A DNA stretch of 53,390 nt, counting the filler, from Bipalium vagum (taxonomy: Eukaryota), in assembly GCA_037834085.1 (NCBI GenBank). It is 3 parts of 3 records of this genome, joined end to end, with 100 filler letters (N's around TTAATTAATTAA, not from the genome) between each part and the next. Parts side by side here need not be neighbours in the genome. Positions count along the whole stretch, not along the records: positions 17,531 to 35,643 come from JBBMKC010040532.1; 2 more parts are not named here. One strand, written 5' to 3'. Of this stretch, positions 1,201 to 53,390 are shown piece by piece. Made by a program: the position numbers and the translations under genes. The first letter of the stretch is position 1. The number at the start of each line of letters is the position of its first letter. Below the pieces are notes generated by a model. That model was not told the origin of the DNA and searched no databases. It was given only the letters and a program-made list of their open reading frames with translations.

Positions 1201-2185
1201 TGTAACAGAAAGAAACATAATTTATATTTTTTAGGATTTACATGATTGATGAAATGTTTTAAATAATATTTAAGAAAAATTACAGATTAATCTTTTTTTC
1301 AAAAACTAAAAATACTTGTGTTCTAAAATCTAAATGACTTTCCAGGTATAAAATGTGTTATAAGTAATATATGGTTTGAATCTAAAATATGTTAATTGTT
1401 CTGTCAAGAGTTGATTAGACATTATCTTTAATCAATTATATCTTTAAATTATTAAAATTAATCATCTCTTTTAAAAAAATATGATATGCTAAACGAATTT
1501 CCACCACTGTATTTCAAAATAGATCTTAACATCTATTGATTTATAATCCATAATTGTAAGACATAAGAATTTATGAATCTTAATATTTCAAAAAAATGTA
1601 GTCAAACCTTAGAAATCGCATAAATAAAAATAATACAATATAATTATATATGAAGTATTTAACTGATTAATTTTTATTTTTTATTACACAGTTATAAAAT
1701 TAATAATAATATTTTTAAATTTTATTATTATTATTACATTTTACAATTTTACAATGCATATTATAATCTTAAATTAAATATTTATAATAGAATTTTAAAT
1801 AATTATTTTGAATATATTAACATTTATTATAATATTAATACGCTCACAAGATTAAAATATAAATATGATATTAAAATTAAGAATTCCCATTGTCTGATTA
1901 ACTTCCATACACATTTATTTTAATAAATTTCATAACATCTATTTTTTCTTTCTTTATCCAGTTCAAGAACTATATCAAATCTTAAGCATAAAATAAAAAG
2001 ATTCAAATTATAAATGTTTAATTTTATTTCTCCTTACTAACTTTTCATTAAATATTTTCTATCTATACGTGTAAAATTGAATTTATTATTTTTCTGGTTA
2101 TATATGATTATTTAATTCCAATATGTAAATAAAATAAAATGAAAAATAATAATTTAACTAATTTTAATATTAAAAAATTCATTAC

Positions 2186-5100: not shown

Positions 5101-5798
5101 TGATTTGGAAAAAAGATACCAATGGAAATGGGATGTAATCATGCTGGTCGATTATTGCTGATGTTTAAAAATGAGATATGAGCACTGATATCCATAAAAA
5201 GAGATATAAACGAAGAATATTTTAACTGAAATCTTGTGTACTCTGTTTTGTGTTCAATTATAAATATAACTAATTTTTTTCGTTAACGTTGTTGAAAGTA
5301 GCGTACTTTGTTTAGTTAAAATTATTTTAAAAAATTAAGCTTTTGCAGAAATTTGATATTATACAAGTTTTTCATTGTATGTATAAAACTTGTTAATTTT
5401 TAAAAATCAATTTCAATAAAAGATAATTTAGTAAAAAAACTTTGAAAATTATTGATTTTAATTTTTAAAAAAATTAAATGTTTAAAAATAAATTAAATTA
5501 ATCGAACCCAAAATAACTTTTTCTGAATATTCGCCAGCTCCACTTCCGTATTTGGATCAAGCCGTCCGTGTAACATGCTATCATTACTTCCCATCCGTAA
5601 ACGTTTTACTTCTTGACTTATTTGTTCAAAACTGTCAACAGCATTGTTGGGATGAAACTCCAGTAGATATTTGATGACAGAGACCAAATGTTCGTAAAGA
5701 TTAAGACCGGACTGGTTGGAGAGCGACTGCAAGAACCCCTTTGCATTGGCATATTCCTGATCATTTGGAGCCAGTCGGGGTAACTCAATATTTGCCAT
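2186..5798 (-). CDS. RSPH4A: Radial spoke head protein 4/6 family (RSPH4A/RSPH6A-like), 5 exons resolved, 3' end missing
   Basis: Exons 5798-5508, 3422-3293, 3251-3012, 2968-2628, 2577-2186, all GT..AG and phase-consistent (0,1,1,0, then 2). The spliced protein has family motifs NLYEHL, FFEQAGVGM, FWGKIFG..QNYYI, NKNIYFCCNEPGKPWFRLP.VTP.QI..AR.I.KFFTG, RISAGTHVSP.GFF, WVHH..HILKQGRC and S.RWPGAY. A donor at 2185 implies a final exon (expected FEN.YIGWG) that I could not find in 1-2185. Confidence 0.95.
3690..4310 (+). mobile_element. Decayed mariner (DD34D) transposase in RSPH intron 1
   Basis: RVVTSGEKWMYFNN (first catalytic D region) and AYSPDLAPLDSHLF motif; frameshifted and internally deleted. 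Confidence 0.85.
4465..5230 (+). mobile_element. Decayed Chapaev3-like (CMC-type) transposase in RSPH intron 1
   Basis: PLHIKLGL.KQFIK near 4696, then MSLKLHF..HLNYFSNNIGEYSEEQGERFHQDIIDLEKRYQWKWDVIMLVDYC at about 4999-5160. Superfamily name is from memory of this motif. Confidence 0.75.
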
Positions 5799-6359
5799 AA
5801 ATTCTTTTTATTATTTGAAAAAATTGATTATTTTAAATCGTTTAAATAATGATTTTATAAAAATCAATTTTAAATTAAATATAAAATGTAAATCCACCGT
5901 TAAGAAAATAATTTTCTTACAATTTTAAAGTATTCTCAATAAAAATAAATAAATAATGAAAGATATTTCTTCAGATTTCCTGTCAGCCGAAACCTTTCTT
6001 TGTCAAAAAGGGAATTTATTTTCCATGGATTGATGACCTACAATGGCTTCATTGTCGGCAAGATTACTTTCCCGTTAAAGTCAACCAGACTTCCTAAACG
6101 ATTGAACAGGTTTTTGTCAAAAGCATCTTTCCTATGATTTCTTGGGTCTCTTAGAAAAAGTCAATTAAATTTCGGATGAAACCATGGTTCACTGAACAGT
6201 TCTGTATCAATGATTAACATAAGATGGTTTTTTGTAAAATAATTAATTAAAAATTATAATATATTAAGTAATTAATTGATGAATTATCACTGTTACGTTG
6301 GACAATCTATGTAAAATATGTTTTAACAAATAGTTTTCTTTTCAAATTCAAAATTCAGA

Positions 6360-17240: not shown

Positions 17241-17430
17241 TCTAAAAGTCTATAAAGTATAAAATGTTTATGAACTCTTATTTTCTGTTTTATTTAATTA
17301 TTTATACTATAGACATAATAATTAATAATAATAATAAAAACATTTAATAAATTGAAAAAAAAAGCATATGGTTTTAAGAATTAAATTTCATTTTTGGAAA
17401 CATTCGTCAGACAGTTCTTATTAATAATAA

Positions 17431-17530
17431 NNNNNNNNNNNNNNNNNNNNNNNNNNNNNNNNNNNNNNNNNNNNTTAATTAATTAANNNNNNNNNNNNNN
17501 NNNNNNNNNNNNNNNNNNNNNNNNNNNNNN
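17431..17530. other. Assembly gap with artificial six-frame-stop spacer
   Basis: 44 N + TTAATTAATTAA (17475-17486) + 44 N. Confidence 0.97.

Positions 17531-17600
<70 letters not shown>
17531..17600. repeat. (ATT)n microsatellite at contig end
   Basis: Pure trinucleotide run abutting the gap. Confidence 0.97.
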
Positions 17601-25200: not shown

Positions 25201-28200
25201 CTTAAAATTAAAAATTGTATGTGGAGAAATTTGTAAAATAGCAGAAAGTACCAATAAAACGATAAATATTATAGGTCTTTTTAACATATTTAATTTATTT
25301 TCTTTAAATAAACTTCAAAATCATATTTTTTTAGAATTATTAATATTATTTTGGAAACGAACACTATTCCTTATTATAATAAACAGGTATTATTAATTAA
25401 GTCCCAATACTGAAATAAGAACTGAAACTCTGTTACAGTAAAAATACCAAAATTGCAAATGATTAAAAAAGTAGAAAACTATATAAAATCAATAATTACA
25501 GAATAATTTTATAATAAAAAACTTAATTAATCGTTATTATGATTAAAACAAGAAAATTATTTTTTAAAAAACTCCTTGTTTGTTACAGATCCAATTGGGA
25601 CTAATTTTGATTTAATTTCTATTAATATTGAATGATCAGAAAATTTATTATATATACTCATTTTAGTTTATGGATTAAGACTGAAACATACATTAATTAA
25701 AATGAAGATCTGAAAGACTTTTCTGTCCACTTTAAAAAAACAAGTGTTTCCTAAGCTTGAAATGAACTTATTCTAGTCACATTAAACTACAATATCACAA
25801 AATTCATGCTAACGTATAATCTATAAAAAGCCAGTATTATACATAAGGCCGTAAAAACGAAAACAGATTAATTTGCAGTGACAATTTATCAAAATTCTGA
25901 ACAGTGTTTTGTTATGCATTAATAAATCAGCACCCTTAAATCAGTACTGATATATCCATTTGATAATGATTATGACAATCAAAAAATAATAAATAGCTAA
26001 AATATAATGGTATTAAACTGTTTGTTTTGGAATATTTTCGTTATTTAAATAGTAATTTTAAAATAAAAAACTTTAACTTTTCAAAATCTAAAAAGTCTCA
26101 TGTTGAATGAAATGAGGCTCAGTTTGATAATTAAATAGTGCTCCTATATTTATCAGTTTATTAATCTTAATATTTAAAAGATTATTTTCGCTATTATAAC
26201 AATTGACACATATATTAAGCAGTTTTTTATTTCTTAATGGATAGGTCCAGTATTCCAACATTGTAAAAAGATTGAATACCCACAGAACACATTCTGACAT
26301 AACACTTAGAGATGTTAAGAATTTTCAATAATGATATTGAGAAAGAATTCTGATCCTCCCTCCTGAAAATACTGAATATTAAAATAAACTTGACTTTCCG
26401 TGAATGAGAATTACTATCCAAATTTTAATGTCACTAAATAACGACAGGGAGCCCATGTTAAGCGGAAATAAATTTAAGTTTCATTGATCTATTTATCCAT
26501 ATATAAAAGTTTTAATAAATCAACTTTATAAAAAAAATCAGGAGTAAAATCTGAATATTTCAATTATAAAAAGAATTTAACACTAAATCTACACAATTTG
26601 AAAACCCAAAAGAGATTAGAGAATAACATAATGTAAAAAAACATTTGGCTTTATTTATATCTTGGTACTTTAATGAAATCTGTATTTTAAAATCAATATT
26701 CGTATGAGAATAAACGAGTTTGTATAAATTAAATGTCATCGACAAAAACATATTAATTTACATAAATTTACATTATTTTCTATTATCTACATTGAGAGGT
26801 TCTGTTATTGTACTTCGAATAAATAAATCTTCAAAAAATTTCACAATACTAAATCCATATTTATTTTGATAAAAAATAAGAAACTAAATTTCAATATCAC
26901 ATAATAATACTGGATTCTACCAAAATTGACATTTTGCACAATCGTCAATTAGAAATTCTCAATGTCAGTAATTTTATGGACAAATCTCTATTCAGTCAAC
27001 TGCTGTAAATATAATTTTCCATCAATCATTATTGGTCAAATTTTGATATATTTCTTTAGGATCCCCCAAATATATATATAAAGAAAATTAATATAACTAT
27101 AATTTTAATACAGTTAATAATTTATTCTCCTCTTCATTAGAACATCCTTCTGGTTTTTTTATATAAAAGGTCTTTACAAATTTTGTTTCATTCAAATGAT
27201 TAAACCTGTGTTGTTTTTTAATTTCATTTAAATTGGTGAAGGAGAATATTGTTTTCTATAAATATTGATAATAATAAAAAAAACAAAATATTTAGTCTTT
27301 TGAGAACCATTGGTACATAATCCTGAAAATCCCAATTTTAAATTAGAAATAATGAAGTTTCAAAAAAATTCGTGAATTTGTCTCAAGTGGATTTTCAAAA
27401 AAGTATTTATTAAAGGTTTTAAAATTCATAAAAACACTAATAAAGAATTTTTTTAAAACAATATAAAAGATACTACTATTTCAATTAACAATTTTTGATA
27501 TATTACTATCATCCCCATTCATGGTGAAATTTAATTAAATGACTAAATGTGCTTATAAATTTTTATTGATAAAATCAAAATAATATTAAATTCATAAACT
27601 TTGATACATTTTCACAAAACATGTAATACATAATATCACAATTAGTAATTAAGAAATAATAATACTTTATCACTGCTTTGCTGACATAATATTTTGGCCA
27701 CTTTGAAAATTAAGCTACAAGTAACAGAATTAACTGGCACTGCTGACTGATTTTCATCGATGGAGCACGAGCTAATGAAAGGCTTAAACAAGATGGCCAA
27801 ATAATCTGGATTGTTACTGAGGGTTGAGAATATAATATTGACATATGAAGATAAAATCTCTGAAACTACATTTTGTTCCCTGAATATGATAACTTTTATC
27901 AAATTTTATTTTAAAAATATATTAATTAAATTTCAATGGATTCATAAATAAGAACGAATAAGAAATAAATTTCACTTTTCTTAATCTCTTATTTTTAAAA
28001 TTCACTTTTAAGTATAATCGTACATTTTTATTGTAGAGAATGTTCTTCTTGTGACAGTGATAAATGATTTTCAAATGTTAACCAATTTATTAACATAAAG
28101 TAATTACTACAAATTGATTTTTTGGGAAAATTTTTTTAAAAAAACCAGAATATTAATTGTAGTTCCTAATTTTTAGGAAACCGAAAGTCGGATGATCACG

Positions 28201-31200
28201 ACAATTTAGTCAGGAATATGATCCAAGATTTTCAAGTCCTAGGATGTCGAATGAGTATAAAAATGCATTTTTTTAAACTCACACCTGGATTATTTACCTA
28301 GCAACCATGGAGCTTATAGCGAGGTGCATGGTGAACGATTTAAACAGGACATAGCCATTATGGAGAAGAGGTATCAGGGGATTTGGAATGTCAGCATTCC
28401 GGGCAAACTGTTGTTGTTGCATAAGCGTAACAATGCTACAACTATTCATAGTAGAAAACCTCATAGGAAAACGTTTAATTGTAAATAAAATAAAATTTTT
28501 TGTTAAAATTAAGTCTTTTTCTTATTATTCTTTAAAATGTATTTTTGCCTAAACCAGATGTCCTTCAGGAAAAAGGATTTTAGATTCTTAATCAGGTGCA
28601 AAAAATACACTATATTATTATAATACCGTCTCCGATAAAAAAGTTTAAATTTGTAGTGTTATTTTAAAATGTATTATTGATATCAGACTTAAATATCCAT
28701 TATCAGTGTTTTACTTCATAAATATAAGAAACTGGCGTTTAAATTGACTTAAATTTGATTTAACTCAATATAATTTTTACTAATATAAATAATATTTTAA
28801 TATAATTCTTGTTCATAAATAAATCAATAGATAAATAATCATTAAAACAACTTTAAAGATATAATTTCCAGTTGACCAATACAATACCTGACATATTTTC
28901 TGGGAATTGCATAAGAAGTGAATAATATTTTTTTAAAATTTCAAAATATTGCCATCTAAATGTAATACATCTAGTTTTAGAAGTTTATAAATAACTAATA
29001 AAATAATCATTTTGTTTAATAATTAATTAATATTAATTATTAATTAAATATTTAAATTCTATTGATAGGAAAAATGTATGATTGATAACGTTATCTGTTC
29101 TTTTTCTTTGGAACTTACCAACTTCTTAATTTAAACTGATTTGAGTGAAAAGACTTATCATTTCTTAACATTAAAATTAAAATTTTAAAACAAAAATCTA
29201 TTATTTTCAGGTCAATTTTTCAAGAAGTCACGATTCTGTAGATTCTGTACCTTGACACAAGAATTACTTTTTTACAGTCATCAGAAGTAAAAATTTTCAC
29301 AAAAAAAATATTAAGAGAAATTGATCAGTTTTGAATAAATTATATATCATAATATATGTTATTTAACTAAATTAGATTTTATTAATAAATCTAATGAAAA
29401 GTTATCAATCTTATATATTTCTAATTCCTTAACATTGTACGATTACTAATTCATGATTAAAACTAAAACATAAATAACATCTTTTGAAAATAAATATTCA
29501 TATTTTTCAGGAGATAATTTAAAAACAATCAACCAATCAAGTTGAGATAAGATATTCAATGAATTTATGTTTCTATTTTCCATTAAATACAAATAGATAC
29601 AAATAAAAATTTTAATTTGAGATTCTTGCTATAAATCTAAATAAAATTAGAACAACTAAAGTAAAATATATTTTACTTATCAAAAAAATCAATAACATTT
29701 TCACAAAATGGAATTATAATTATAATATAAAATTAATCTGGTACATGATAATTTAATGCAACAGACTTTTACGTCTGATTGTGTTTAAAATTTAAAACAG
29801 GAAAGTGTCAAATGCCTTTGTTTAAACATCCTATACTTGTTATTTCAGAAATGATCAAATAAATTTTTATAATTTTTCTGAGTTCATTAGAGAGATGAAT
29901 TATGTGACTATTATATTTCAATCAATTTGTAAATTCTAAAATTGAAATCAAATTTCTTATATGGATCAAACATTGAGAAGAAATCAAAATCTTAGAAATA
30001 ATAAAATTATAAAAAAACATCTAGATCAGAAGATTTACTTTTTCGCAGTTTTTAAAGCGAAATGTAAATTTTAAAATATATTGTCTCATTCAATTAAAAT
30101 AAAATCTTTAGTTCAAATTATAAACTCCTCATCCTTGAACTTCACAAAAAAATTATTAAATGTTTATAATGAATAGTTTTTCAATAACTGAAATGTCATA
30201 TCAATTGTTGATATTCCAAGTATTTCAGGTCAATTATCAAGAATTTCAATCTTCTTTAAACCGAGAGTTTAATTGTTGTCATTAAGACTTTGGAGTTTAG
30301 TCTCAATACTGTTTCATATAAAAAAACCAGAAGAAAAAGTGAAAAATTATCTTAAAATAGTTTGACGAAATTAAATGTGATAAGACATGAAACAAAAATG
30401 AGAGTCGGTGTCAAAATTACAAACCTTTTATTTTTTTTTAAACTTAACCAAATGATAAAACATGTTCAAAAGAGAGATTTGAGAAAATAATAATGGAGAA
30501 ACTATTAGATTTTATATTAAGATATCTGACATTAATTTTAAATGTAAAAGAAGCTTTAACACGGAAAAAGCGACTATTCACAAATACCAATTTCCAAAAT
30601 TAATATTTATTATAATTCAAATAGAAACAAATAATTTGAAAATTTGAAATTTAGACTTCAACTGAAGAAACAACTTTTGAATTATTAATTTATTTTTTAA
30701 TAATTATCGATCTTCCAAAAAGTTTTTAAAAATAATTATTCAAAATCTTTTTAACTTAACAACTTCATCTAATTTTAAAATGACAAAAAGGAAATTAAAT
30801 TAAATTAATTAGAAAATTACTTAGATATTTTTTAAAAAAGGATAAAGAATCCTAGTAAATTCTAAAAATCCTGAAAATATAACCATCCTCCATTATCCTA
30901 CATAACACAGATCATTTTATTATTCTAACTACGTTATATTAAACTCATATTTACATAAATAACTTTGATAAAGAATACAGGTTCTGTCATTAAGATATTT
31001 ATTAGATTTCAATAAAATAGTCAATATTTTATTTTCACAATATCTAGATTTTTATTCTCTAAAAATATCCATTGGATTTTACAGCTCAAATATTACTTTC
31101 TTTCAAAACACTTATTAATAAAATATCACATAAAAAATTAAATATCTTGAATGTTCTTTAGTTGGACGGTTTTGAAATGACAGTATTATTGGGTGAGGGA

Positions 31201-32261
31201 AATTTTTTGGTATAAAAAAAATTAAACAGAAAGAATTAAAATATTTATTTTAACCACATATGGATCTTTAACATGGATAATCTTTTAACATTTTTCAGGT
31301 GAAGTCATTATTACATTACTCAAAAATTTCGTGAATTCTTTGAAGAAATTTATCAAATATTATTCACAACACTGAATAGAAATGAGGTTTACTCCCTTGA
31401 GAATTTTGCAGACTTATAATAGTCAGACAGTGTCAAATTCGGCAAAACTCGTCCAATCTTCAAACTCATAGATTTACATGGCCTATCATTGGTGGGGCAG
31501 ATAACAATTTCATTTGATGCCAATGCATTTTTATAGAATACGAAAAAACCATTTTCCAATATCAAATAAGTTCAATTAAAATGAAGATAGACCAAAAAAT
31601 GACAATCTGATACTTAAAATTCGATCATTTATTTTAAATGAGGTAATTTGAATTTTCAATGCATTATTAATTAATGTCAAAATAAAATTCGATCATTGAT
31701 CTCAATAATTTGAATTTAAATTGACATTATCATTTTAATAAATTTAAGGTAATAAAGTAAAATACCGAAAAAACAAAATTCCCTCTTCATTTGGCTCTGG
31801 TTGTGTGATCAAAATATTCAACATATCAGAAATGTGCTCGGGAATAACAAGGCTAAAATTCAAAATAAATTTCCACCCATTAAATTACAAAACAATGACC
31901 ATTTCATAAATTAAGTTAATGTTTTATATTTCAGAGTTTGACAGTTAATTCATCTTGAAAATTGATAATCATATTCATTGACACAAATAATTAGTGGACT
32001 TATTAAAATTATATAGATTTTCAATTTACACATTAACAATAAATGCAATAGCCAATTGTTTGAAAATTAATCTTTACTAATTTAATAATTTTTCATTATA
32101 CACCTGTACTTCGTTAATAACCCCGTCCTCAGATAAAACCTCTTTTAATGTGACACCCTGTATGACATTCGATAATTACAATAAAGTAGAAATTATAATC
32201 TAACTTCTTTGTTTAATAAATGATCAACTTTGGAAGAATCAACATTAGGTCTCCAATACAT
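19264..32261 (-). CDS. PPP6R3: SAPS-domain protein / protein phosphatase 6 regulatory subunit (PPP6R-like), 8 exons resolved, 3' incomplete
   Basis: Exons 32261-32205, 32157-32078, 31852-31766, 27879-27666, 25048-24911, 23642-23577, 20742-20651, 19377-19264, all GT..AG with matching phases (0,2,2,0,0,0,2). Protein MYWRPNVDSSKVDHLLNKE|GVTLKEVLSEDGVINEVQVYNEKLLNY|LVIPEHISDMLNILITQP...VVSEILSS...QPP...|WLSNEDITSKLLSKIQP is collinear with the PP6R N-terminus [44 protein letters not shown]. The symbol denotes the family, not strict orthology. Confidence 0.9.
19559..20140 (-). mobile_element. Internally deleted mariner in SAPS intron 7
   Basis: LLFCYNLKKSPAEAHVLITKVYGE N-terminus, SDFHLFRSMQH motif in another frame, and TIR-like tattaggtttg near 19559. 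Confidence 0.85.
21645..22817 (-). mobile_element. IS630-Tc1-type DNA transposon with both TIRs and TA target sites, inactivated
   Basis: TA|cagagtttttcaaaaaaattaacactttcaa ... ttgaaagtgttaattttattttgaaaaaccctg|TA. Transposase remnants IKKATVYNIL, LVFIDKMGINCSMRKRYGY, SISAAIT, FNSEHL..FI and DNVPFH. Confidence 0.9.
24150..24492 (+). mobile_element. hAT transposase C-terminal dimerisation-domain fragment
   Basis: FVSVDVERSFSQHKLMLSDRRQNLTIENIQYL. Confidence 0.8.
28150..28658 (+). mobile_element. Chapaev3-like transposon 3' fragment with probable terminus
   Basis: LGNRKSDDHDNLVRNMIQDFQVLGCRMSIKMHF..SHLDYLPSNHGAYSEVHGERFKQDIAIMEKRYQGIW; ends ...gtagtg|tta, consistent with a GTG terminus and TWA target. 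Confidence 0.8.
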
Positions 32262-33249
32262 TTTACAAACACTCTAGAGAAAATTTAAGAAATACAATTT
32301 AACAGTTTAAGTTGCTTTTTAATTGAAATTTATGAAATAAATTTTAATATAATTAACAAATATATTCATAAACTAACAACTGATTAATGAAATTTGTATA
32401 ATATTTAATTTAAATGAAATTATGTAACTAAAGTCTACAAGTTTAAAATATGATACTCGGAGGTGATTTAAACAAAAGTACTTTCTCATTTTCATATTTT
32501 AAATTATGAAAAACGTTACTTTAACTTTTAAGAAAAATTTGAAATTAGAAAACATTGAGAAATATTATCATGGAAAGGATTTAAAATTATTTTTGGGTTA
32601 TAGTCAGAGTATTGGTTAAATACTCTAATATATTATCTAATAAAAAAGAAATCAATTTCAAATTTATATTATTAAAATTACTTCAGTAAAAACGATAAAA
32701 ACTTATGGATTGCTTACTTTACCATAATATTAATTAAAAGCTGATAATACTATTTTTTAAAATATAATGAACTTAAAATAAGTAAGAAAAATGACAATTT
32801 TAATATTATTTCAATATTTAACTGCTGCAAAACTTTTAAGACAATATTCAGAGTTTGTAACCACATTTTGAAAATTTATAATTAGAATTTGAATATTTAT
32901 TAAAATGTTAAATTTTTAAATTACATGTAAGAAAAGTGTTAAATGATTTAAATAAAAGGATTTTAGATTCGCACAATAATGAACATTCTAGGAAAAAAAT
33001 GTCAAACTAAGTACAATTTCTGCCGTTATAAATGTATATCTTTAAGGTAAATAATTTTAAGTACATACATATAATATATAATGTAAAATTAGTTGGCCAC
33101 TCGGAAGACTTTTGTTTTCCTGTGTAAAGTCCTGTGTGGCATAAAATTGTTTTTAGTCTTGAAATTTTTGTAAAGCGCGCTGTGGTATTAAAGTTCGTTT
33201 GGTTTAGAATTTCAGAAATATAGTTTGGCTAGTGAAAGAAAATCAGTTT

Positions 33250-34650
33250 TAGATACGCCAAGAGTATTGACAAGGAGTTCAATGAGGATACTTAGGATAA
33301 ATACTTGATTGATTGTGGATGCAATGTCAATGAGGAAACGATAATATTAGCGGTACAAGTAGACAATTTTGGTCACCCAAGATTAGTCGGACATAGATAC
33401 GATGAATTATTAAATCCATTTATCCGAGAAGGAAGAGAATTACGTAGAGCAACAGGAATTACTGAGGAATTAACAAGAATTGAAGTTGAGGATCCGGAAT
33501 CGGTAATGCTAGACTAGATATCAGATGAAGATATTCAAGGGACCAGAGAAATACCGCCAACAGAACGGCTAAGAGAAGAAACTCAGATGGGTGATCTATC
33601 CATTGCCTAACAAATTGGAAATCTTTTCATCATTCGAGCCTCATCATATTCTAATGCCTCTGCTACCTGTCTATAGAAAAAATAGAACATGACGAACAGT
33701 CCAGACAATATCAGGAAACAATCCAGTAGGAAGACCAAGGAAAGATCCAAACGCACCACGTCCACAAGGGATTATCAGAGAAACCAAGAAAATACTCCGA
33801 AGAGAATATTTAACCAGATTAGAAGATCGATATAGAAAGCAACACTGAGAAAAAACTTATGATGATGCCACGAGGGAAGATCAAGAACGATTATTAAGAA
33901 TATTGGAAGTAATAGATCCATCTATGGAAACAAGAGGAGAACTGAACGATTTAACATTGGAAATATATTTAGAAATTTTGAAAATTCTAGAAAATTTTGT
34001 GTATAAACCAGACAGTACAAGCGATGAATTATGGTTGGCACAGTTTTTCGAAGGTAGAATGGACAAAGAAAAAGTTATGGTTGGCATAGCATTAATTCTG
34101 AAAAGGGTTGATAAAGTAAATCGGTAGTCTAGTCGAAATAATACAGATATTCTAATTCGAGGTGCAAACAAGACGATTGAAGAATTTTTCGGACCATGGA
34201 TGCAGCTGAATCAAGGATGGTATAATTTACTCGGAATAAAGAAAGCACAACAATCAGAGGCTAAATCAACAACAAGAGGATCATATGATACACCACAAGA
34301 GCAGCCAGATTTCAGACAAAGAACAAGACAAGAGGAACAACCAGAAGAGCCACGAAGAAACAATCAATCAGGACAAGGATCAAGATCAACGAATGACTCC
34401 CGGATGCCTGTGGTGTTAATCATGATTATGATGTTTCTCAACATGATGAACAAGACAAATGCACTAGTATCATACGATCGCAACAAACCGAAGATGGGGA
34501 AAATTTAATCATTAGTGGACTTGGAAGAGTATCCAGAAGCCTACCAGACCAATCTGAAAAACAGAGATGTGGAATATCACAATTTACAAGACACAGAGTT
34601 TAGAAGAACCCAGGTGAAAGAATGTATCGTAAAAAGGGCAGTTTTTATAT
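33250..34650 (+). mobile_element. Decayed env-like / endogenous viral ORF ending in a chuvirus-type glycoprotein N-terminus
   Basis: Purine-rich coding-like strand. ORFs 33903, 34200 and 34515 share one frame from about 33590 to 34650, broken by isolated stops. Hydrophobic signal MPVVLIMIMMFLNMMNKTNA (34404-34463) then LVSYDRNKPKMGKI*SLVDLEEYP...LQDTEFRRTQVKECIVKR. Confidence 0.65.
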
Positions 34651-35369
34651 TTCGAACAAAGATTTTATTGGTGCAGTATGCAATGAAAAGATATTAATTT
34701 TCTTCAGTTACTATTTTTTTCAACAGTCCAATGAATCCTTCATTTTTACCTCTCATAGAAGGTTTGTCATCGGTGCAGACACTAATCAAATTATTTAAAA
34801 TTTATTTTAATTTTTGGTTCACTTCTCTGAAATTTTAAGCTTTATGTGTTTTTTTAGTTAATGTACCAAGCACAAAAAAATCTTCATAACACTAAAAATC
34901 TTTGGTCACAGCTCGAAAAAAAAATTATGTAGAATCGATTTTATCAGTACTCTCATCTAAAGTGATTGAAAAATAAACATCTTTGTTTTCTATTATTGTA
35001 CAAAGTTTCTCCGTTATATTTTGAGCTATTTCATGTTGCCGATCTGTAACAGTTCTTCTTGAAGGAGATTATTGTTTATATTTTTCAACTTTTTCTGGAT
35101 CTAACGTACTCATTGCTTTAACAATGCATTCCTTAATTGTTTCAATGTCACTAAATAGTTTACCTTATTTTACTAAGCCCGTGCCCTATCTTAAGGTAAT
35201 ATTAACTGCAAAATTAGGTTTCTTTAAAAAAGCCACAAAATTCGCTTGTTCTTGATGTTTTTCTTTTTTCAACTTTTCAGGATCAGCTTTACAATTTTCT
35301 CCTTCTAAACTGAAATATTTATGATCTTGATGAGTCGAATAGTGTGTATTGCATTTGATTTTTTAATAG
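34650..35369 (-). mobile_element. hAT (Buster/SPIN/GTF2IRD2-like) transposase fragment
   Basis: SRRTVTDR, FSITLDESTD, NLISVCTDDKPSMRGKNEGFIGLL and ISFHCILHQ*NLCSK; truncates the neighbouring glycoprotein-like ORF. Confidence 0.9.
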
Positions 35370-35371
35370 TA

Positions 35372-35643
35372 CAGTGCGCGTAAAAAGTCTGTTCACCCTT
35401 TATAAAAAATACTAACTAATAATTAATTAATTAATTAATTAGTTAATTTTAATTGAAAATAATATTTTAAACAACGAAATTTATTAAATGAACAAGTCTT
35501 AGTATTGAATAAAATATCCCTTTGATTTCTTGACCAATTGTAATCTTTTGGGCATTGAGTTCACATTTTTCTGGCACGTGTTACGAGAAAGGTTGTACCA
35601 TTTGTTTTGGATCTCATTCCATAAATCTTCAGCACAATTATGT
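35372..35643 (-). mobile_element. Tc1 element 3' end with TIR, running into the gap
   Basis: TA|cagtgcgcgtaaaaagt TIR; minus-strand EDLWNEIQNKWYNLSRNTCQK..SMPKRLQLVKKSKGYFIQY*. Confidence 0.9.
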
Positions 35644-35743
35644 NNNNNNNNNNNNNNNNNNNNNNNNNNNNNNNNNNNNNNNNNNNNTTAATTAATTAAN
35701 NNNNNNNNNNNNNNNNNNNNNNNNNNNNNNNNNNNNNNNNNNN
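35644..35743. other. Assembly gap with artificial six-frame-stop spacer
   Basis: 44 N + TTAATTAATTAA (35688-35699) + 44 N, same design as the first gap. Confidence 0.97.
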
Positions 35744-35882
35744 ATACAACTTTAATTAAATTAAATCAAGTACTTAAAATGTCTTTAAAAAGTTAAGATA
35801 CTTGTACTAACAATAGTAAATATAGTAAAGTTTATTTATAATTAGAAAAAAAACAATTAAATAATAATTATAATAGTAATGA

Positions 35883-35883
<1 letters not shown>

Positions 35884-35935
<52 letters not shown>
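35884..35935. repeat. (ATT)n microsatellite
   Basis: Direct observation. Confidence 0.95.
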
Positions 35936-35940
<5 letters not shown>

Positions 35941-36089
35941 TAAACATTAAATATTGTTCAAATATTTTTTAAAAAACTTAAAATTTAATAAATATTCTTA
36001 ACCACAAAAAAGTACTGCAACATAATAAAACGAGATTTCAACAAAGTAATTGTGTTAGTCATAATATAAACACATTATTTGACAATTAA

Positions 36090-36420
36090 TAATTAGTATT
36101 TTTGTCAATATATTCCTGTGGTCTTCTCCAAATGTTTAAAGTAAAGTTTTTGAAAATTGTCTGGTGCTATTAGTTCCAATTGCTATTTTAATCCTTTTGA
36201 CATTTGTTATTTTGAAGTTGCCATATGATTATAATTTTGTCTGACAAGTCGACTAAATCCCTCAAATCATGTTCGATACCATTATAGGATATGAACATTT
36301 CTGAAATACAATGTATCAAACATTATTTTTGCAGCATGTAACCTTGCATTATCATACTTCAGCACAGATTGTGTTTTACAGTACTTGGAATGATGTACAT
36401 TTAAATATTTCTGAATAATA
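36090..36420 (-). mobile_element. Highly decayed Tc1-like catalytic fragment
   Basis: YDNARLHAAKIMFDTL..RNVHIL*W resembles QDNA..H....V..L.W. Confidence 0.5.
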
Positions 36421-37967
36421 TTAAAATTAAAAAAATTCTTTTTTCAAGTAAAAAAGGATTAATAAAAAATTCGTTGCAGTTTGAAATTTTGAAAATTTTT
36501 CATTCATTCACACACAAAATTAAAAAAAAAATTTGGAAAATATGAAAACACGTATTTACAGAAATTAATCCATAACTAAGTCAAATTTGAAGTTTTCGTT
36601 CTTTTTAATATGAAATAAAGTTTTTTCACTTTTTGTGACGAAACTTGTGAAAAAGAAAAAAAGTCTTATGATGCTAATCCATTTTACATTTCCAAGAGAA
36701 ACCAAATCAAAAGATAAAACAGTTTATATTTTAAGAAGTTTTAAAGAATTTTTTTATATATAAAATTAACTATAAAAATAAATAATATTTTAAGGCATTT
36801 ATTATTTTATTTAACATTTAAACGTATAAATTAGATACTTTTTGTAAAGAATATAATATAATATAATATAAAGTTCCCATAAATTGGTGACACGAAAGAA
36901 TTGAGTTAGGTAGGTAATTTAACATAAGAAATTTAGTGATCAGAAGGAATTATCAGAATGTAACGCTAGGAGAAAATTTAAAACACCAAAGAACAATATG
37001 TAAATTGTCAATATACATATTAAAACTGAGTAAATTATTGAGTCAAGTGAACAACTAAAACACAAAGACAAATAATAATACAAAATCGAAAAAAAATTTT
37101 AAAAATTGATTTACTGAAATATCTCGACTTTCTAAAATCAATTTTAGAATAATTGTTTGTTAAAACAAGAAAGAGAAATAACCCTCATTGTCTCATCCTC
37201 AAAGGCATCAGTTGAAGTATCAGTTCTAGGTCCTACTGGAAGTAGAGAACGCAAAAAAAAAGATAACAGGGCAATAAAAATAAAACACTTAATTATTTGA
37301 TTATGGGGTGTCAGAGACGATAGTATTTAATTTCTTTAGTTAATTATCCTAGAAAAAAATAATTTGTAATAAAAATATTACTTTTACTTTAAAAATTTTA
37401 TTATTTTTATTATTAAGTAACCTGATTACCTTTTAACACTGTGATATCTTTTAATATATAATTATTTTTACTTCGTTAATTACCGAATTATTTGTTGTTT
37501 AGTTTAGATTTAATATCAAATCTTCTGAAGAAGTAGCTTTAAAATTAATTACTTTTGTAAGCCTCGAATTTCCACTTCTAATGTATGTTTGGTTGAAAAT
37601 GATTCTATGAAATTTTTATTGCTGACACTCTGTCTTCTCATTGATTTCTCGATTCTAAAAAATTCTCAAAAATATTTATCGGTTTCAAATCTACTCTTTC
37701 TGTAGGCATTCTCTGTCTCGTTTTCTCATAATTCACTTGATACTTTTTGTTGAAACTCGAAGACTTTTTCCTGTGATTTATTATGAATCTGTTCGTATTT
37801 TATTAGGTCTGCTGACCTTTTTTCGATAAACTATTGCGTGTCTTCATTTATCTTATTCTTTTTCTGTTGTCATTATCGAAATAGTAACTTGATGTTGCTA
37901 ATTTTAGATTTACCATAAAAGTTTTCTAAGCTAATCCTTTTTATTTTAATTATATAATTAGTATATA

Positions 37968-38943
37968 CGCGGTGCGCCCACTAAATACTTAGACTCGACA
38001 TGAAATAATTACTTTATACAAAAGATATTCTTGGTATTGAAGCAAACAAATACCCAAGAAGTTATTAATCAACTGCAGGATGCTTACAAGGGTGAGTGCC
38101 CATGTAAAACGACAATTTATAACTTGGATGTTGCATATATTGCTGCATGGAATGGGCAATAGGAAGTTGTATTCACGATTTGTGCCACGATGTCTCACAG
38201 GTGATATGCAACAACGCCAACTAAAATGTTATGAGAAAAATTTGGAGATCTACATAAAACTAGGAGATGATTTTCTCAATAACATAATCACGGAAGATGA
38301 GACACCTTTGAGAATGTATATATCGGAAATCAAACGCGAATCTGCCGAATTGAAGATGTCAGGGGAGAGACCAACATTAAAAATGAGAACTAGTACATCT
38401 CATAAAAAATTTCTGATGCTGACAATCTTTTGGGATATGAAAGGCATTCTCTATGTTAAATTTAATACATCTGATGACAAAGTTAATTCAGAATATTATG
38501 CACCACGTATAAAGAAAGTAAAAGGAAAACTACAAAAAGAGGAAAGACTGAGCTATGGCTCTTGCAAGATAATGCTCCAATCCATACATCCCATCTGATA
38601 AAATCAAAAATTGATTATTACTCGTTCCTAACCCACAATAGAGTCCCGATCTCATTCCCAGTGAATTTCGCTTCTTTCGTTAACTGAAGAAGGATTTGCG
38701 AGGAAAATTATTTGATTGGGGCTTTGATTTGCAGAACTTTCACGGATTTGTTGAAATCGTACTCCAATACCTTTTATGAAAAAGGTATTTTGGATTTGTT
38801 GTATCGTTGGCAAAAATGTGTGGATGTTGGTGGAGGTTATATTGAAAAATTAATATAATTTCTTGCTACATCATTGTTATTGAAAGTTTAAATAAAATAT
38901 GTGTAATAATTATTCAGTCAAAGTACTTAATGGGCCCAATATG
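37968..38943 (+). mobile_element. Mariner element with both TIRs, N-terminal deletion and frameshifts
   Basis: TA|cgcggtgcgcccactaaatacttagact ... agtcaaagtacttaatgggcccaatatg|TA. Motifs SRFVPRCLT, IITEDET, MLTIFWDMKG, QDNAPIH, SPDLIPSEF and RWQKCVD.GGGYIEK. Confidence 0.93.
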
Positions 38944-39064
38944 TAATTACTACGTTTGTGTTAATACGAAAAAAGAGAAGGATATCCACATTATAATTTT
39001 TTAAAAAAGACGTTCTGATTTAAATTTTCATATATAAGTCTATAATATATGGATAAAAGAAATA

Positions 39065-39067
<3 letters not shown>

Positions 39068-39142
<75 letters not shown>

Positions 39143-39143
39143 G
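39068..39143. repeat. (TTA)n microsatellite
   Basis: Direct observation. Confidence 0.97.
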
Positions 39144-41439
39144 GTTAAATTGACATTTTTGAGCATGTCAGATGTTGAGGTATGATCTAAATGTGCTCTA
39201 ATTCGTTGTACTAATTATGAGATGAAATTAAACGTTTTACGGTTGTTGATGAAAACAATCAATATCTTACGCATAGAAAGAATAAAATAATTATTTTCAA
39301 CATGTAATTTTCTCTTCCATTATCATTTTAATATTTTTGCTAACAAGTTATAACGATTATACATTTCTGGGAATTTATTTAATCTAATCCAAAAATGAAA
39401 ATGATTTGCAAATCTTAATAATTTTTTGCAATTAATTATAAAATGTAAAACGACGTCAACATGTTTTTATTCTTTCTCTAATCTTCTCTAATACCTACGA
39501 TAATCTCGGACATTCTCTGAATTCCTATGCAAATAAAGAGTATGTTGGGGTTCTTAGGTTGGACAGTATTAGGCGGAAATCAATTAATATAAGAAATCGC
39601 AATGTTTATTTAAATAAATTGTAATGAAGTTGTTATGAAAATCAATCTCAAACTGACACGGTAATTGTAAATTATTAAACATTATTTTATAAAATTAGAC
39701 AAATTATTTATTTATTTTTTCTTAGGTTCTTTTTAAAATAATTAAAGCAGGTTTTATTTATACAATATTTATTTATCTGGGATATTTTCAAAAATTTAAT
39801 AACACTTTTGATAACAACGAAAACAACATACTTAAGTAAATGAGATTATTGGCTTTAAAGGATTTGTTCCAACCAATCCTTTAAAAATGTATCCTCATAC
39901 TAAAACACCATGATGAAAAGTTTTAATCTGAATGAACGTTGAGACATTTAAACTTTTAAAAAATATTTTTATAGTAGAAATATAAAAAAAAATTATAGAC
40001 ATGTTTTGTTATTCCTTCGGTTAATTTTTAAAACAATTCTCATGGGGAACATAAGAAATAAGAATGTTTATATATATACATGCATAATGGTATAGAAACG
40101 TTCATATGATCATAGAGGTCGGAGAAATAACACTTGGTATTATTAGGACTAGTAATAAATAACCTATATTTTTATAATATAATGTAAATATTGAAGTTAT
40201 TTTAACATATCAATTTAAAATTGATTTTCCGGTCAAATATTCATTAATTTATCATAATCAATTATCATCATATACATAATTCTATGATTCATATTTTTCA
40301 ACGACCTTGAATAAATTGGTGAACACGTGGCTTTTACCATCATCAATATTGTCTCGTTTTATTGAACAAAGAAGGTTTCTTCTGTTTGTATTCCTTAAAC
40401 CACCGATAAATTGTATTTTTGCACTATTTACCATTTACCAAAAGGAAATCGTTATTACAATTATTAACATTTTTATAAATAGTATATTTATCCATTACGA
40501 ACACATTTTCACAAATCTTTTTCTCGTGGTTTTCAAAAACGCAACGACCTACTCTTATTTTAACTGAAAAATATTAAATAATATTTTCCATTTCTCTCTT
40601 TTCCATTTTGAAAGTACATCTTACAGCTGATTAGTCTAGTCTGTTGAAGAAAGCCTATTTAAATACGCTTTCTGTTATAACACAAAAAAATCAGTAATAA
40701 TTTTCTTTTTATTTAAAAAGTAATATTTAATTTTTTATTTTATATTACGATTTATTTTTGTTACAATAAACTGATAAATTTTGCAAATAACTTTATAGAA
40801 ATTATTATTTATCGCATAAATTTATTTATTTAATATTTTACAATACATTTCAAAGATTTAAAGTCATCAATATCACTTATGTTTTCATATTTTGTTCCTA
40901 ATCGTTTCAAATATTTTTTATTAAAAGAAATTTTTGCATTGAACTTTCAAATCCAAAAATAAATAATAAACATTTTTCTTGATCAATATTATCCATAAAA
41001 GATAACAATATAATATTTGTGAAAAGTTAATCAATTTAAAAATTATCCAAAGGAAATTAAATTTAAAAAATCGATTTATTTTTCTAAAAGAAAAATTAAA
41101 TAAAATGAAATTTTAATAACATTGAAAGAAAAATTATATATATAAATATGTATATATGCAAATTATAAAGAATTATACAGAAGGTGTATTTGATAATAAT
41201 GCAGATTTGTTTTAAATAGAGAATTTATAGTTTTATAAAATACATTTTGTGATAAATCATCTTATTTTATTAAATGTTGGGAAACATGTAGTGTTATTGT
41301 CATCAATATTTTTAAGCTTATCAATTTTGAAAGTCCTTTTTAACAAACAATGTTTGCTGAATATGTATATTTTCTAATTTTTATTTAAATATTTCTATTA
41401 AATAAATATGCAAATTGTGAGGTATATTGAAAATTAGTA

Positions 41440-41511
41440 GGCGATGTAGCTCAGCGGTCAGAGCAGTGCATGCGCATGTGAAGGTTCCGGGTTCGAATCC
41501 CGGTATGTCCG
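41440..41511 (+). tRNA. tRNA-Ala(CGC)-like pseudogene or tRNA-derived SINE head
   Basis: GGCGATGTAGCTCAGCGGTCAGAGC...CCGGGTTCGAATCCCGGTATGTCCG. A box, B box, D arm and T arm intact, TTTT at 41517-41520. The acceptor stem has two mismatches, the anticodon stem does not pair and position 33 is G. Confidence 0.75.
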
Positions 41512-43299
41512 ATTAATTTTCAACTAACACAAATAATTAATAATATTGGTGGATATTGGTCTTTCTGTTAAGGTTGATTTAAAACGTTTTAAAAATGACC
41601 ATTTTCATATTGAATATTGTTTAAAAAAGCAAAATGGTTGGAATGTTCAGATTAATCAATGATTATGATTGGGATATTATCCATAAATTACCTGATAAAT
41701 GAGAAACATGTATCTAACAATGAACAATTGTTTAAACGAGCTATTTCTGACGTTCCTAATGAAGTTATTGTGAGATGGTAATTTAAAAATTCACAAGATT
41801 AACAGGTAATACAAAATCTTTGGTACATATATTTAGGACATAACGATACCCGTTCATTTATTGATTGATTATAATTTTAATTTAAATCATGTTTAGTTAT
41901 GGATATCATTAGGAAAGATATTTGAGGATCCTGAAATGATATGGGCAATAATTTTGTGAACAATCGATTTTTTAAAATAAAAATACGTTGAAAATAATTT
42001 TTATTACTTTATCAAGACAAAATTATACTAATTAAAATTAATCTTTAATAATAATAAAAATAATAAATTTATAAATAAATAATAAAAAAATTCTTTTTGC
42101 TGCTGTATTATAAAAACTTTCCCATAAAATATTTCAAAATGTATTTTAATCTTCCTTTTGTATTCCGATTTGTTAAATAATAATAAATAATAATATTATT
42201 ATTTAAGAAAAACTATGTATAAAAAATTATTTATAGATATTTTAAATAATATTTCTCAATGATATATATATATTTTCTTATTTTAATTTGTTTTTTGGAA
42301 TTATAAAAGTAATTATAAAATAACATTTTAAAGTCTGAAAATATTGATTTAAATAAAAGGGAAGTCTTCTAGGAATTGGTTGAGTCTATGAAATTAATAT
42401 TATTCCAATATTTTTAATAAAAATAGCAATTTATATATTTTATTTATTAAAAATATTATTTTATTTTTCTAAATTTAAAGAGGCTTATTGAAAATATCTA
42501 TTTAATTTATAATTTTGTCAAAAGAATAAGGCTTACGACACATACACACATATATAGACGTTAATTATCAAAAATTTGAAAAATCTATTTAATTAAATTA
42601 ATTTTTTATGTAAAACTTAATAAAATTCTGAATATCAATTCTTCACATCGATCTTCAATCTTGACAAAATCAATAATCTATATGAAATATATAATTTATA
42701 AGACTTTAAGTGACTTTATATAATTATTGTTTATTTTATTTAATTTCGTTTATATATATCTTTTCTTTTTCTTTTTTATTTTTCCTTATATGATATTTAT
42801 TTTGTTATTATATATATTATATTATGTTTACATACCAGCTAATTATAATTACATAATGATAATATTAATTAAAATCAAATTAGTTAATCACATTCATACA
42901 AAAATGATTTTCTAATTAACAAATTAATATTAATATTAATATTACTACTAATAATATTATTAATTAAACACTTATCAGCATTAAATATTATTACAAAAAC
43001 TTTTCATAAAAACAGCGAAAATGTTGCATAAAAACGTAACAAAATATTGTTTCGAAGTCCATTGTCAGTGATGAAGGAAAAAAGAAAATATGTCAAGAAA
43101 AAGAAACTGAATTGCAAAAAGTATCGTAATAAAAAATTCCATTTGGATTCCTTTTTAGTAAGGAAAATGGATTTTGAATTGGGTCTCCCCTATTGGTCGA
43201 ATGAATACTAATGAAGTGTTAGTTCATTTCTGTTCTTTCATTTGATTATACCAATGATCTGTGACCGTTTAGTTGTTCACCACTAATTCATGTGGTACA

Positions 43300-45069
43300 A
43301 TGAATTCCATGAAGAAATTGGCGATCAGTCCTCCGACCAAAAAGTTCAGAAAGATCCTGTCCTACAGGACGCTGGGAATCGGTCTTTCGTTCTGTCGAAA
43401 GAGTACCATTCATGGTCTCAACCATGTCGCCAGCTCGAGAGGCGTCGGTCAACGATTGTTTTGGCTTTGCATCTGTTTCAGTGCATCCGTTGGAATGTTT
43501 ATAAGCATGTATTTTTTGATCGACAAATTCATCGAGAGACCGGTACTGACAAACATTTTACAAGATCACGATTATTTCACTTATCCGGACATTTCCTTCT
43601 GTTTTACTAATCCGATTTATTTCCCTCCACTAAATACGACTTACTACACTTATTTGTTGCAGAAATATGAAGACTACAAAGTTTTCAAATCTAAAAACCA
43701 TAGATTCATCACCAATCATATAAAGTTTGGAGAGTTTCTCTTCATGGAGAAAAACTCCAGTTATACCCATCCATCATGGTCTACTGTTATCAATTGTAAC
43801 TACTTAGGCTTGCGGTGCTCATATCAAAATTTCATACCGAGATTTCTGTTTCCATTCGGAGCTTGTTATACATTCAACTCGACCTCAGTTGAAGAATCAG
43901 ATGCGCAGTTTCGTCAGCATATGACAACAAATCGCGAGTTGGAACTCATTATTTACAAAGCCGTTGATATCATTCCCGGCGAAATAAGTGATCCTTTTGA
44001 GAGTGTCTTGATGCCTTCGGGGATGTTAATTATGATTCATGATAAAGAAACGTGGCCCCAGATAAGGGAGAGTTATGTTTTAGATGGATACAGTCAGATT
44101 GATTTGAAGATTGTCAATAAGGTCCATCTCAATGTCGGAAACAGATGTAGACCCATCAAAGATAAGTTTTCGTATTATGATGTTTTTACGAAGATCAATA
44201 CATCTGTATACGGAAAGTATTCGGACTGTGTTTTCCAAAATGTTCAGCGAGAGGTTTCTCGCTTTTGCCACTGTCAGTGGCCAAAAATGCAAGTGCTTTC
44301 AGAATTTCATAATTTACGTTTTTGTTTGGATGGTCATTTACACATTAAAAAATTTTACGAATGTCTGCAGGAGGCTTATGCAGAACTGGACAACGGAATA
44401 CTACAGAAATGTTATATGGATGATTGTATACATAATACCTATGAAACAGTGATTTCTCAAAGTAAATTTCCGGCTATGATAGAAAGGAAAACCCAGCAAA
44501 AATGGTTGAATATACTTGCTGATCTGGAAGAAAAGGAAGTGAACTATTTTGGAAAATCCGATCTTCATCTGAGAGCTTTGAAGTCGTCCAGACAGCGTAA
44601 AACCAACATCAGTACAGCTTTAATTAACAAACAATGGCATCTGTTAGATGATGATTTCGTTGAAAGGAACTTCATGATGATTAAAGTCATGCCAACTTCA
44701 ATGTTCATTGATAAAATAGAAGAAACAGAAGAATATCCCATCAGTCGATTACTAGGTGATATTGGGGGCTGTGTTGGGTTATGGATCGGAGCCAGTCTCA
44801 TAACCATATTTGAGTTTGTAGATCTCATCATGGACTTTTCAGAAACGAGAATCATTCCATATAGACAAAAATCTCACAAGACCCGATCGAATTATTTCAA
44901 TTCCTTCTTGAAGAAGAACTGTTTTCCATTGAACTCGAACAGATCCCCAAGACACGATATGGTTTTCGAAAACACTATCCCATTGGAAATTGCAAATTCA
45001 CCAAACGAAAAACTGTACCCTGAGGATTCAGCCTGTGGGAAAGATATTATTAAAATATCCAATGTATAA
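43300..45069 (+). CDS. DEG/ENaC/ASIC-family (FaNaC-like) sodium channel subunit, single coding exon
   Basis: STIHG pre-TM1 motif, TM1, YPDISFC post-TM1, GACYTFN, G.LIMIHD, Cys-rich thumb, TM2 LLGDIGGCVGLWIGASLITIFEF. First in-frame ATG is 43300 (the track starts at TTG 43273). Confidence 0.96.
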   Translation: MNSMKKLAISPPTKKFRKILSYRTLGIGLSFCRKSTIHGLNHVASSRGVGQRLFWLCICFSASVGMFISMYFLIDKFIERPVLTNILQDHDYFTYPDISFCFTNPIYFPPLNTTYYTYLLQKYEDYKVFKSKNHRFITNHIKFGEFLFMEKNSSYTHPSWSTVINCNYLGLRCSYQNFIPRFLFPFGACYTFNSTSVEESDAQFRQHMTTNRELELIIYKAVDIIPGEISDPFESVLMPSGMLIMIHDKETWPQIRESYVLDGYSQIDLKIVNKVHLNVGNRCRPIKDKFSYYDVFTKINTSVYGKYSDCVFQNVQREVSRFCHCQWPKMQVLSEFHNLRFCLDGHLHIKKFYECLQEAYAELDNGILQKCYMDDCIHNTYETVISQSKFPAMIERKTQQKWLNILADLEEKEVNYFGKSDLHLRALKSSRQRKTNISTALINKQWHLLDDDFVERNFMMIKVMPTSMFIDKIEETEEYPISRLLGDIGGCVGLWIGASLITIFEFVDLIMDFSETRIIPYRQKSHKTRSNYFNSFLKKNCFPLNSNRSPRHDMVFENTIPLEIANSPNEKLYPEDSACGKDIIKISNV

Positions 45070-52539: not shown

Positions 52540-53390
52540 AATGAATTTAAAGATTTTCAAGAGATTTTTATTTCAGGTGAAGAAGTGATAAATAAAATTA
52601 ACGAGATTCACACGCTATTGATCCACACAGAATCAGAAAAAGTTGAATACTATATGAAAGATATACAAAATGAAAAACATGGGACAAATGATCCAGTAGG
52701 TAGTGCATCATACGAGGCTTGTCAAACAGATAAAACGCAAACCATCAGGACAAAGAAGGAGATCATAAAATTAGACGCAACCGAACTATTTGCTGATATA
52801 TAAGTCGATATAGGCGGGCCCAAGACAGATACAAGAGGTCAAAGGAAATAAATACTTGGTATAATTGATCAGTTTAGCAAATATGTATCGTTAACATCAA
52901 TAAATAGACAAGATGAGATGGGAGGACGATACTAAATAAATGGATAATGCGATTTGGATGTCCAGATCGAGTACATGAGGATTGCAGAAGAGTTTTTGAT
53001 TCAAAGTTTATGAGAGAAACTAATAAACTAAATATTGAATTATGTTATTCAAGTCCTTATCATTACTGCAATAATGGTCAAATAGAAAGGCAATTCCGCA
53101 CAATGAAAGATTTTATTAATGCTACCTTGCATGAGAGACACAAGATTAGACAGAAATCTTGCTAGAAGTAGAGTTTGCAATAAATGCCACTTTACAAAAG
53201 ACGATTAACAAGAGCCCGGCGGAAGTGGTCTTTGGGAAAAAAATATTCAGAGAGAATTATTATGGAGTAACAAATCCCCAAGTGGAAAGAGGACAGTTAC
53301 CAACTGCAGCTATAAGACGAAGTTTCAAAGAAGGTGAAGAAGTGTTGGTTAAGGCAGAGATACGGGATAAAAACCAAGAGCGGTTCGAGG
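52540..53390 (+). mobile_element. Ty3/Gypsy LTR retrotransposon integrase, decayed, runs off the window
   Basis: Degenerate HHCC (H..L.H...EACQTDK), VDIGGP, IIDQFSKYV, WIMRFGCPDRVHED, SSPYH..NNGQIERQFRT, FAINAT, SPAEVVFGK and FKEGEEVLVK. Confidence 0.93.

Follow-up and report, generated by a model that had tools for sequence, protein, structure and literature searches.

The stretch of DNA analysed here, referred to throughout as the window, is 53,390 nucleotides long, eukaryotic and AT-rich, with a GC content of about 0.25. On its plus strand, the frame at 33591–34676 holds four stops in 362 codons (at 33690, 33846, 34125 and 34506), against 11–30 stops in each of the other five frames over the same stretch, and four stops or fewer were never reached by the best frame in 5000 shuffles. 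The frame sits in a block of raised GC content, which measured per 100 nt is 0.26–0.44 across 33100–34700 compared with 0.17–0.23 immediately upstream. A phmmer search against 1.84 billion representatives returned 21 proteins with E values of 0.001 or less (best 6.8e-24), referred to here as the relatives and cited by P numbers; word-indexed protein searches gave no matches with the translated frame and two proteins only with an alignment, A1. The features of the locus are as follows.

33251..33590 (+): decayed sequence that may also stem from the element, one base out of frame, raised GC content
33729..33743 (+): GRPRK basic motif upstream of the Bcl-2-like domain, also found upstream of the envelope (env) in relatives
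33867..34247 (+): predicted divergent Bcl-2-like helical domain, core 33933–34247, from profile and structure matches
34059–34076 (+): putative BH1 equivalent without NWGR, from aligned columns
34194–34220 (+): BH2-like motif PWxQxNxGW
34248..34403 (+): polar Q/R/E/S-rich linker, predicted to be disordered (pLDDT 32–37, no secondary structure)
34404..34463 (+): internal hydrophobic segment from hydropathy, likely the env signal peptide, with likely cleavage after 34463
34464..34655 (+): start of an envelope glycoprotein of the HSV-gB/chuvirus type (first ~65 residues), from PF24664, the phmmer relatives and tblastn
34650..35330 (−): likely decayed DNA transposase of hAT/Charlie type by its motifs, abutting the env break and not part of the retroelement

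A plus-strand frame with isolated stops from about 33590 had already been proposed in the preliminary description, and that part holds, but the sequence before it (33251–33590) lies in another frame and could not be upheld as coding. Its depletion of stops is not significant (664 of 3000 shuffles were equally open), no Pfam family was found in it, and its match to relative P0012 is weak, covering 22 residues; in one of six tests, as good a match arose in 2 of 200 shuffles. An idea formed by eye that this sequence encodes ankyrin found no support from Pfam. The GRPRK motif, which we take to be AT-hook-like, has counterparts (GRP[RK]) upstream of env in P0012, P0013, P0014, P0023 and P0025, and the region around it is identical to P0013 at 8 of 11 positions.

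No LTR pair was found beside the fragment and no gag or pol family in a Pfam six-frame scan of 27001–40500, and when the entire window was searched by tblastn with the relatives, the only trace of gag or pol was a weak, unrelated-looking integrase piece at 52944–53123. The fragment is therefore a dead, broken piece of about 1 kb that would make no working protein, as evidenced by its four stops, two lost cysteines, an env cut at about 34655 and the lack of any adjoining gag, pol or LTR.

The surrounding sequence holds several other features. The minus-strand stretch that abuts the env break (34650..35330) was given its hAT/Charlie label from motifs that we presume to be diagnostic; its stop depletion is weak (169 of 3000 shuffles), and neither Pfam nor PDB provided confirmation of the label. 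The integrase piece at 52944–53123 (+) is decayed and gypsy-type, shares 28–30% identity with the relatives' integrases (E 2e-4 to 0.016), and probably belongs to a separate element, being 18 kb away in the window and past a host gene. An uninterrupted ORF of 598 codons at 43273–45069 (+) encodes a sodium channel of the amiloride-sensitive type (ASC/DEG-ENaC, Pfam E 1.6e-46), and a radial spoke head-like gene (RSPH4/6) has exons at about 2180–5810 (−), with a Pfam E of 2.6e-49 for 2559–2999. There is a mariner-type transposase remnant at 38041–38598 (+; Transposase_1, E 1.2e-13), and a frameshifted coding-like remnant without a Pfam family at 28180–28450 (+) that presumably resembles the transposase of a DNA transposon. 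A tRNA-like stretch at 41440–41511 (+) shows A- and B-box-like words by eye, but ARAGORN calls no tRNA there, which makes a pseudogene or the head of a SINE the likely explanation. Runs of N with the TTAATTAATTAA linker occupy 17415–17532 and 35624–35743, the second being 1 kb downstream of the fragment.

The envelope start and its likely signal peptide

With stops written as X, 34401–34661 matches the Pfam family PF24664 (Monjiviricetes_fusion) at positions 4–83 of 653 with an E of 8.5e-5, which bears out the preliminary description of a chuvirus-type glycoprotein start. The score of 21.1 bits is under the curated cut-off of 27 bits because just 80 of the 653 positions survive. The same family is matched by 20 of the 21 relatives, with five of the fuller ones scoring 285–304 bits. 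Similarity between the fragment and the relatives ends at 34652–34658 at the furthest (tblastn), cutting env at about a tenth of its full length, and the best env identity to any relative is 44%, to P0004.

In addition to this truncation, the env start is interrupted by the stop at 34506 and has lost two conserved cysteine columns. The motif LVSYD begins at 34464, and the codons at 34479, 34530 and 34623 read in frame as Arg, Tyr and Cys, so that cysteine is retained only in the third column. Among those relatives whose matches cover the three columns, cysteine is present in 20 of 21, 20 of 20 and 15 of 16, respectively, in agreement with the earlier suggestion that the first two cysteines had been lost and the third was intact. 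The missing cysteines, ectodomain and transmembrane anchor mark the decay of this copy rather than a different ancestry.

The strongest hydrophobic stretch of the frame starts at 34404 (Kyte-Doolittle 15-mer 2.27), exactly where a hydrophobic signal had been proposed (34404–34463). A hydrophobic stretch also precedes env in the 16 relatives long enough to be compared, and a small residue occupies position −1 in 15 of the 16 and position −3 in all 16, which is consistent with cleavage by signal peptidase. A further hydrophobic, transmembrane-like segment of env is present near residue 685–700 in P0005, P0014 and P0017.

The region ahead of the likely signal peptide

The pre-signal region, described previously as unknown, is well supported as a divergent Bcl-2 fold, as judged by sequence profiles and a structural model. 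When a profile built from the fragment and eight relatives was compared with PDB, all 59 matches at E ≤ 0.05 belonged to the Bcl-2 family (best 3.5e-4), these being mostly Bcl-xL variants and representing about three distinct proteins. The alignment covers the BH1–BH2 region, and the BH2-like motif is identical to Bcl-xL at 6 of 11 positions as aligned. The NWGR of BH1 is missing from the aligned columns in the fragment and in the relatives displayed. The weaker profile, A1, gave a best Bcl-2 match at E 0.019 in PDB, with an unrelated spike mimic as its top row (E 0.018), and the translated frame on its own had no Bcl-2 match in Pfam or PDB.

The region is shared with the relatives. Built from seven relatives' pre-env stretches with the fragment excluded, a profile matches the frame at E 1.2e-11, the next best among 714 six-frame chunks of the window being E 0.35, and P0004, the best relative, aligns across the helical region as well as the env start (frame residues 87–347). 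Directly before env, 3 of the 21 relatives have Pfam Bcl-2 matches, all weak and below cut-off (E 7.7e-5 to 9.6e-4); an Atlas query with P0004 gave no family lead and no Bcl-2. The distance from BH2 to env is 84 aa in the fragment and 50–79 aa in seven of the 16 relatives compared. No BH2-like motif precedes env in P0012, P0014 and P0023, so the module is not universal. In the fragment, one stop (34125) falls within the domain and another (33846) before it.

An AlphaFold model from nine sequences has a mean pLDDT of 50.8 and a pTM of 0.37, rising to a pLDDT of 64–80 over residues 91–160, whereas a single-sequence fold of the translated frame has a mean pLDDT of 42.6. Compared with 48,161 chains by VIA-align, the model places Bcl-2 folds at ranks 1–31 (Z 8.7 to 5.8), some of which we take to be Bcl-2 folds from their chain names, and the first unrelated chain at Z 5.4. 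The best match is KsBcl-2 over 103 residues with an rmsd of 3.1 and a Z of 8.7, a value below the caution level of the tool for helical folds, and identity in the top structural rows is 8–16%. Foldseek returned nothing with the model at E ≤ 0.001, and its non-significant list consists of Bcl-2 family members in 41 of 42 rows, one judged by a shortened title. A BFVD fold search with the model gave nothing under E 0.34.

The carrier element and rival explanations

Several relatives are long enough to reveal the element that carries this module. A single ORF contains zf-CCHC, env and proteases in P0012; zf-CCHC and env in P0013; env and protease (PR) in P0017 and P0023; and env, PR, RT, RH and IN both in P0014 and in P0025 (4844 aa, a cluster mate of P0023). 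In these six, env is seen in frame between gag and pol, whereas the fragment is truncated on both sides. The relatives with pol carry RVT_1, RT_RNaseH, Integrase_H2C2, rve and gag-asp_proteas in one ORF with env before the protease, and this we take to be a gypsy-type set. No BEL/Pao-specific or negative-strand-virus family was found among the 21 relatives at the thresholds used. Judged by domain content, the 21 relatives represent parts of Ty3/gypsy-type polyproteins whose env lies in frame, with gag before it and pol after, and the preliminary reading of a remnant of an envelope-bearing retroelement holds. P0025 also has up to six protease-like stretches, a C2H2 finger, ankyrin repeats (with the Ank_2 match falling downstream of env) and ~1,500 residues past the integrase, an order unlike that of published Burro. 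In P0007 and P0009, env starts are fused to host domains (FAD-oxidase_C and mitochondrial ribosomal L47), and these fusions are likely chimeras that gene calling or assembly produced across decayed pieces of elements.

The locus is, with high probability, a broken and truncated piece of a Burro-type Ty3/gypsy retrotransposon, taken from what is likely one gene encoding the gag-env-pol polyprotein, the host likely being a planarian. In the published description of planarian Burro/GYPSM1, as far as it was compared, these giant gypsy-like LTR elements of Dugesiidae have a single ORF of ~4,900–5,100 residues, with env placed after a BCL2-like motif and before the protease and matching mononegavirus fusion glycoproteins, and decaying fragments with stops and frameshifts occur in Dugesia japonica (Arkhipova and Yushenova, PMC6431247). 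Compared by description, the fragment reproduces the BCL2-env junction of these elements, but with only ~1 kb left it lacks their BIR, MATH and ankyrin domains, gag, pol and LTRs (PMC6431247). The possibility of an undescribed architecture, raised previously, finds no support, since the pre-signal region is a predicted Bcl-2-like domain and BCL2 followed by env in one polyprotein is part of that account of Burro (PMC6431247). The locus is mostly explained by an element class that has been described, with a layout already known in planarians.

A second line of comparison is offered by the gypsy elements with a gB-type env and GAG-ENV-POL order reported in Platyhelminthes, and also in nematodes and bryozoans, by Chary and Hayashi (PMC13524379), where six of the nine flatworm rows are from S. 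mediterranea (errantiviruses 1–6, configuration C1a). By eye, the pattern Y-h-x-Q-x-[ST]-x-F...[KR]EC of the env start is shared only with these six rows among the rows compared (parts 1 and 7 of 114 and the search rows); the nematode, bryozoan, branchiopod and viral env rows compared start differently, and most insect and all BEL/Pao rows fall outside this comparison (PMC13524379). Over the 31 residues before the break, the fragment is identical to Smed_errantivirus_4 at 16 positions and to Smed_errantivirus_1 at 14 (by eye), while P0009 is identical to the env of the latter, from Schmidtea mediterranea, at 54 of 57 (by eye). With respect to the S. mediterranea errantiviruses in the rows compared, the fragment represents a different and more distant family, to which P0004 is nearest.

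This distance leaves some room for a gypsy element of gag-env-pol order, likewise with a Bcl-2-like module, whose host lies outside the planarians, or whose family is distinct from Burro proper. The best env identity to relatives, at only 44%, would fit such an origin, as would the compact gag region of P0013, which is without the BIR and MATH domains of Burro, and the occurrence of GAG-ENV-POL order in nematodes and bryozoans noted above. We nevertheless consider it unlikely, given that the env-start pattern is confined to the six S. mediterranea rows among those compared and that P0009 is near-identical to one of these rows. The GC content of the window also suits planarians.

A BEL/Pao element with a captured chuvirus glycoprotein as its env, the lead named in the preliminary description, is very unlikely as the source. 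The glycoprotein class (PF24664) is identical, and Anakin, a published Pao-chuvirus hybrid of mosquitoes, uses this class as its env (PMC7642597), but the relatives with pol have gypsy-type PR-RT-RH-IN domains with env upstream of the protease and no BEL/Pao-specific family at the thresholds used, and the abstract on Anakin mentions no Bcl-2 module (PMC7642597). The accompanying expectation of a probably non-insect host can be counted as right. It is extremely improbable that the fragment derives directly from a chuvirus (Jingchuvirales) genome; its glycoprotein start fits the Monjiviricetes fusion profile and mosquito genomes contain solo chuvirus glycoproteins (PMC7642597), yet a viral polymerase or nucleoprotein family is present in none of the 21 relatives, the five longest of which bear retroelement domains, the upstream Bcl-2-like domain is common to retroelement relatives, and a close-relative search of metagenome and viral contigs found no related loci. 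A domesticated, working host gene, whether Bcl-2-like or env-derived, has next to no likelihood, for although the frame is far more open than chance, one of its four stops is within the Bcl-2 core, two conserved cysteines are gone and env is about one tenth of its length.

Proposed topology and significance

The preferred reading, a Burro-type gag-env-pol polyprotein, raises the question of how intact elements would handle an env in the middle of one chain. Signal peptidase and tail-anchored Bcl-2 proteins provide the basis for proposing an anchored fold in the cytosol and an env in the lumen. In intact elements, Gag and the accessory domains would be translated in the cytosol, after which the hydrophobic segment would be inserted into the ER and signal peptidase would cut behind it, leaving the ectodomain of env free in the lumen. 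The transmembrane helix of env would then bring the chain back to the cytosol for the protease, RT and integrase. At the end of the upstream product there would be a Bcl-2 fold, a linker and a hydrophobic tail, the arrangement found in tail-anchored Bcl-2 proteins, and such a product may well act to keep the host cell alive.

The predicted fold, the BH2-like motif and the downstream hydrophobic segment are alike in viral Bcl-2 homologues (KSHV KsBcl-2, ASFV A179L, EBV BHRF1 and poxvirus M11L/N1L) and in Bcl-xL. The fragment differs from these in that it has no NWGR in BH1, is part of a retroelement polyprotein, and has a hydrophobic tail that is likely also the env signal peptide. A comparable arrangement is described for the core-E1 junction of HCV, where the upstream cytosolic protein ends in the signal peptide of the envelope and stays anchored to the ER after cleavage by signal peptidase (PMC5402940). 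The junction proposed here would work alike, although virus and proteins are unrelated and the likeness is one of topology only.

It is therefore proposed, tentatively and with less than even confidence, that planarian gag-env-pol elements use the env signal peptide as the tail anchor of a viral Bcl-2, with one signal-peptidase cut yielding both a luminal env and an anti-apoptotic protein, the latter perhaps also holding the Gag polyprotein upstream of it at the membrane in which env sits. The same proposal would make Burro and the S. mediterranea gB-type errantiviruses one group, in which the Bcl-2 module was gained or lost between families. No statement of an env signal peptide serving as a Bcl-2 tail anchor was found in the literature searched, and the idea seems to be unpublished, but the Burro domain maps and supplements of Grohme et al. 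2018, which lie outside that search, may already show the junction.

As a locus, the fragment carries little weight, being a dead piece of a described element class. The order of Bcl-2 fold, linker, signal peptide and env is, however, fixed in seven relatives and in this copy, and predicts a topology and a cleavage that can be tested. BURRO1 is reported to be transcribed in somatic tissue upon SMEDWI-2 depletion, and the proteins of intact copies could therefore matter (PMC8532177). The comparison also links the descriptions of Burro (2019) and of the errantiviruses (2026), which make no mutual reference in the text compared; the words 'Burro', 'Bcl' and 'polyprotein' are absent from the main text of the latter (PMC13524379). 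For the planarian elements themselves, the arrangement sharpens the question of what the apoptosis-related domains of Burro may do.
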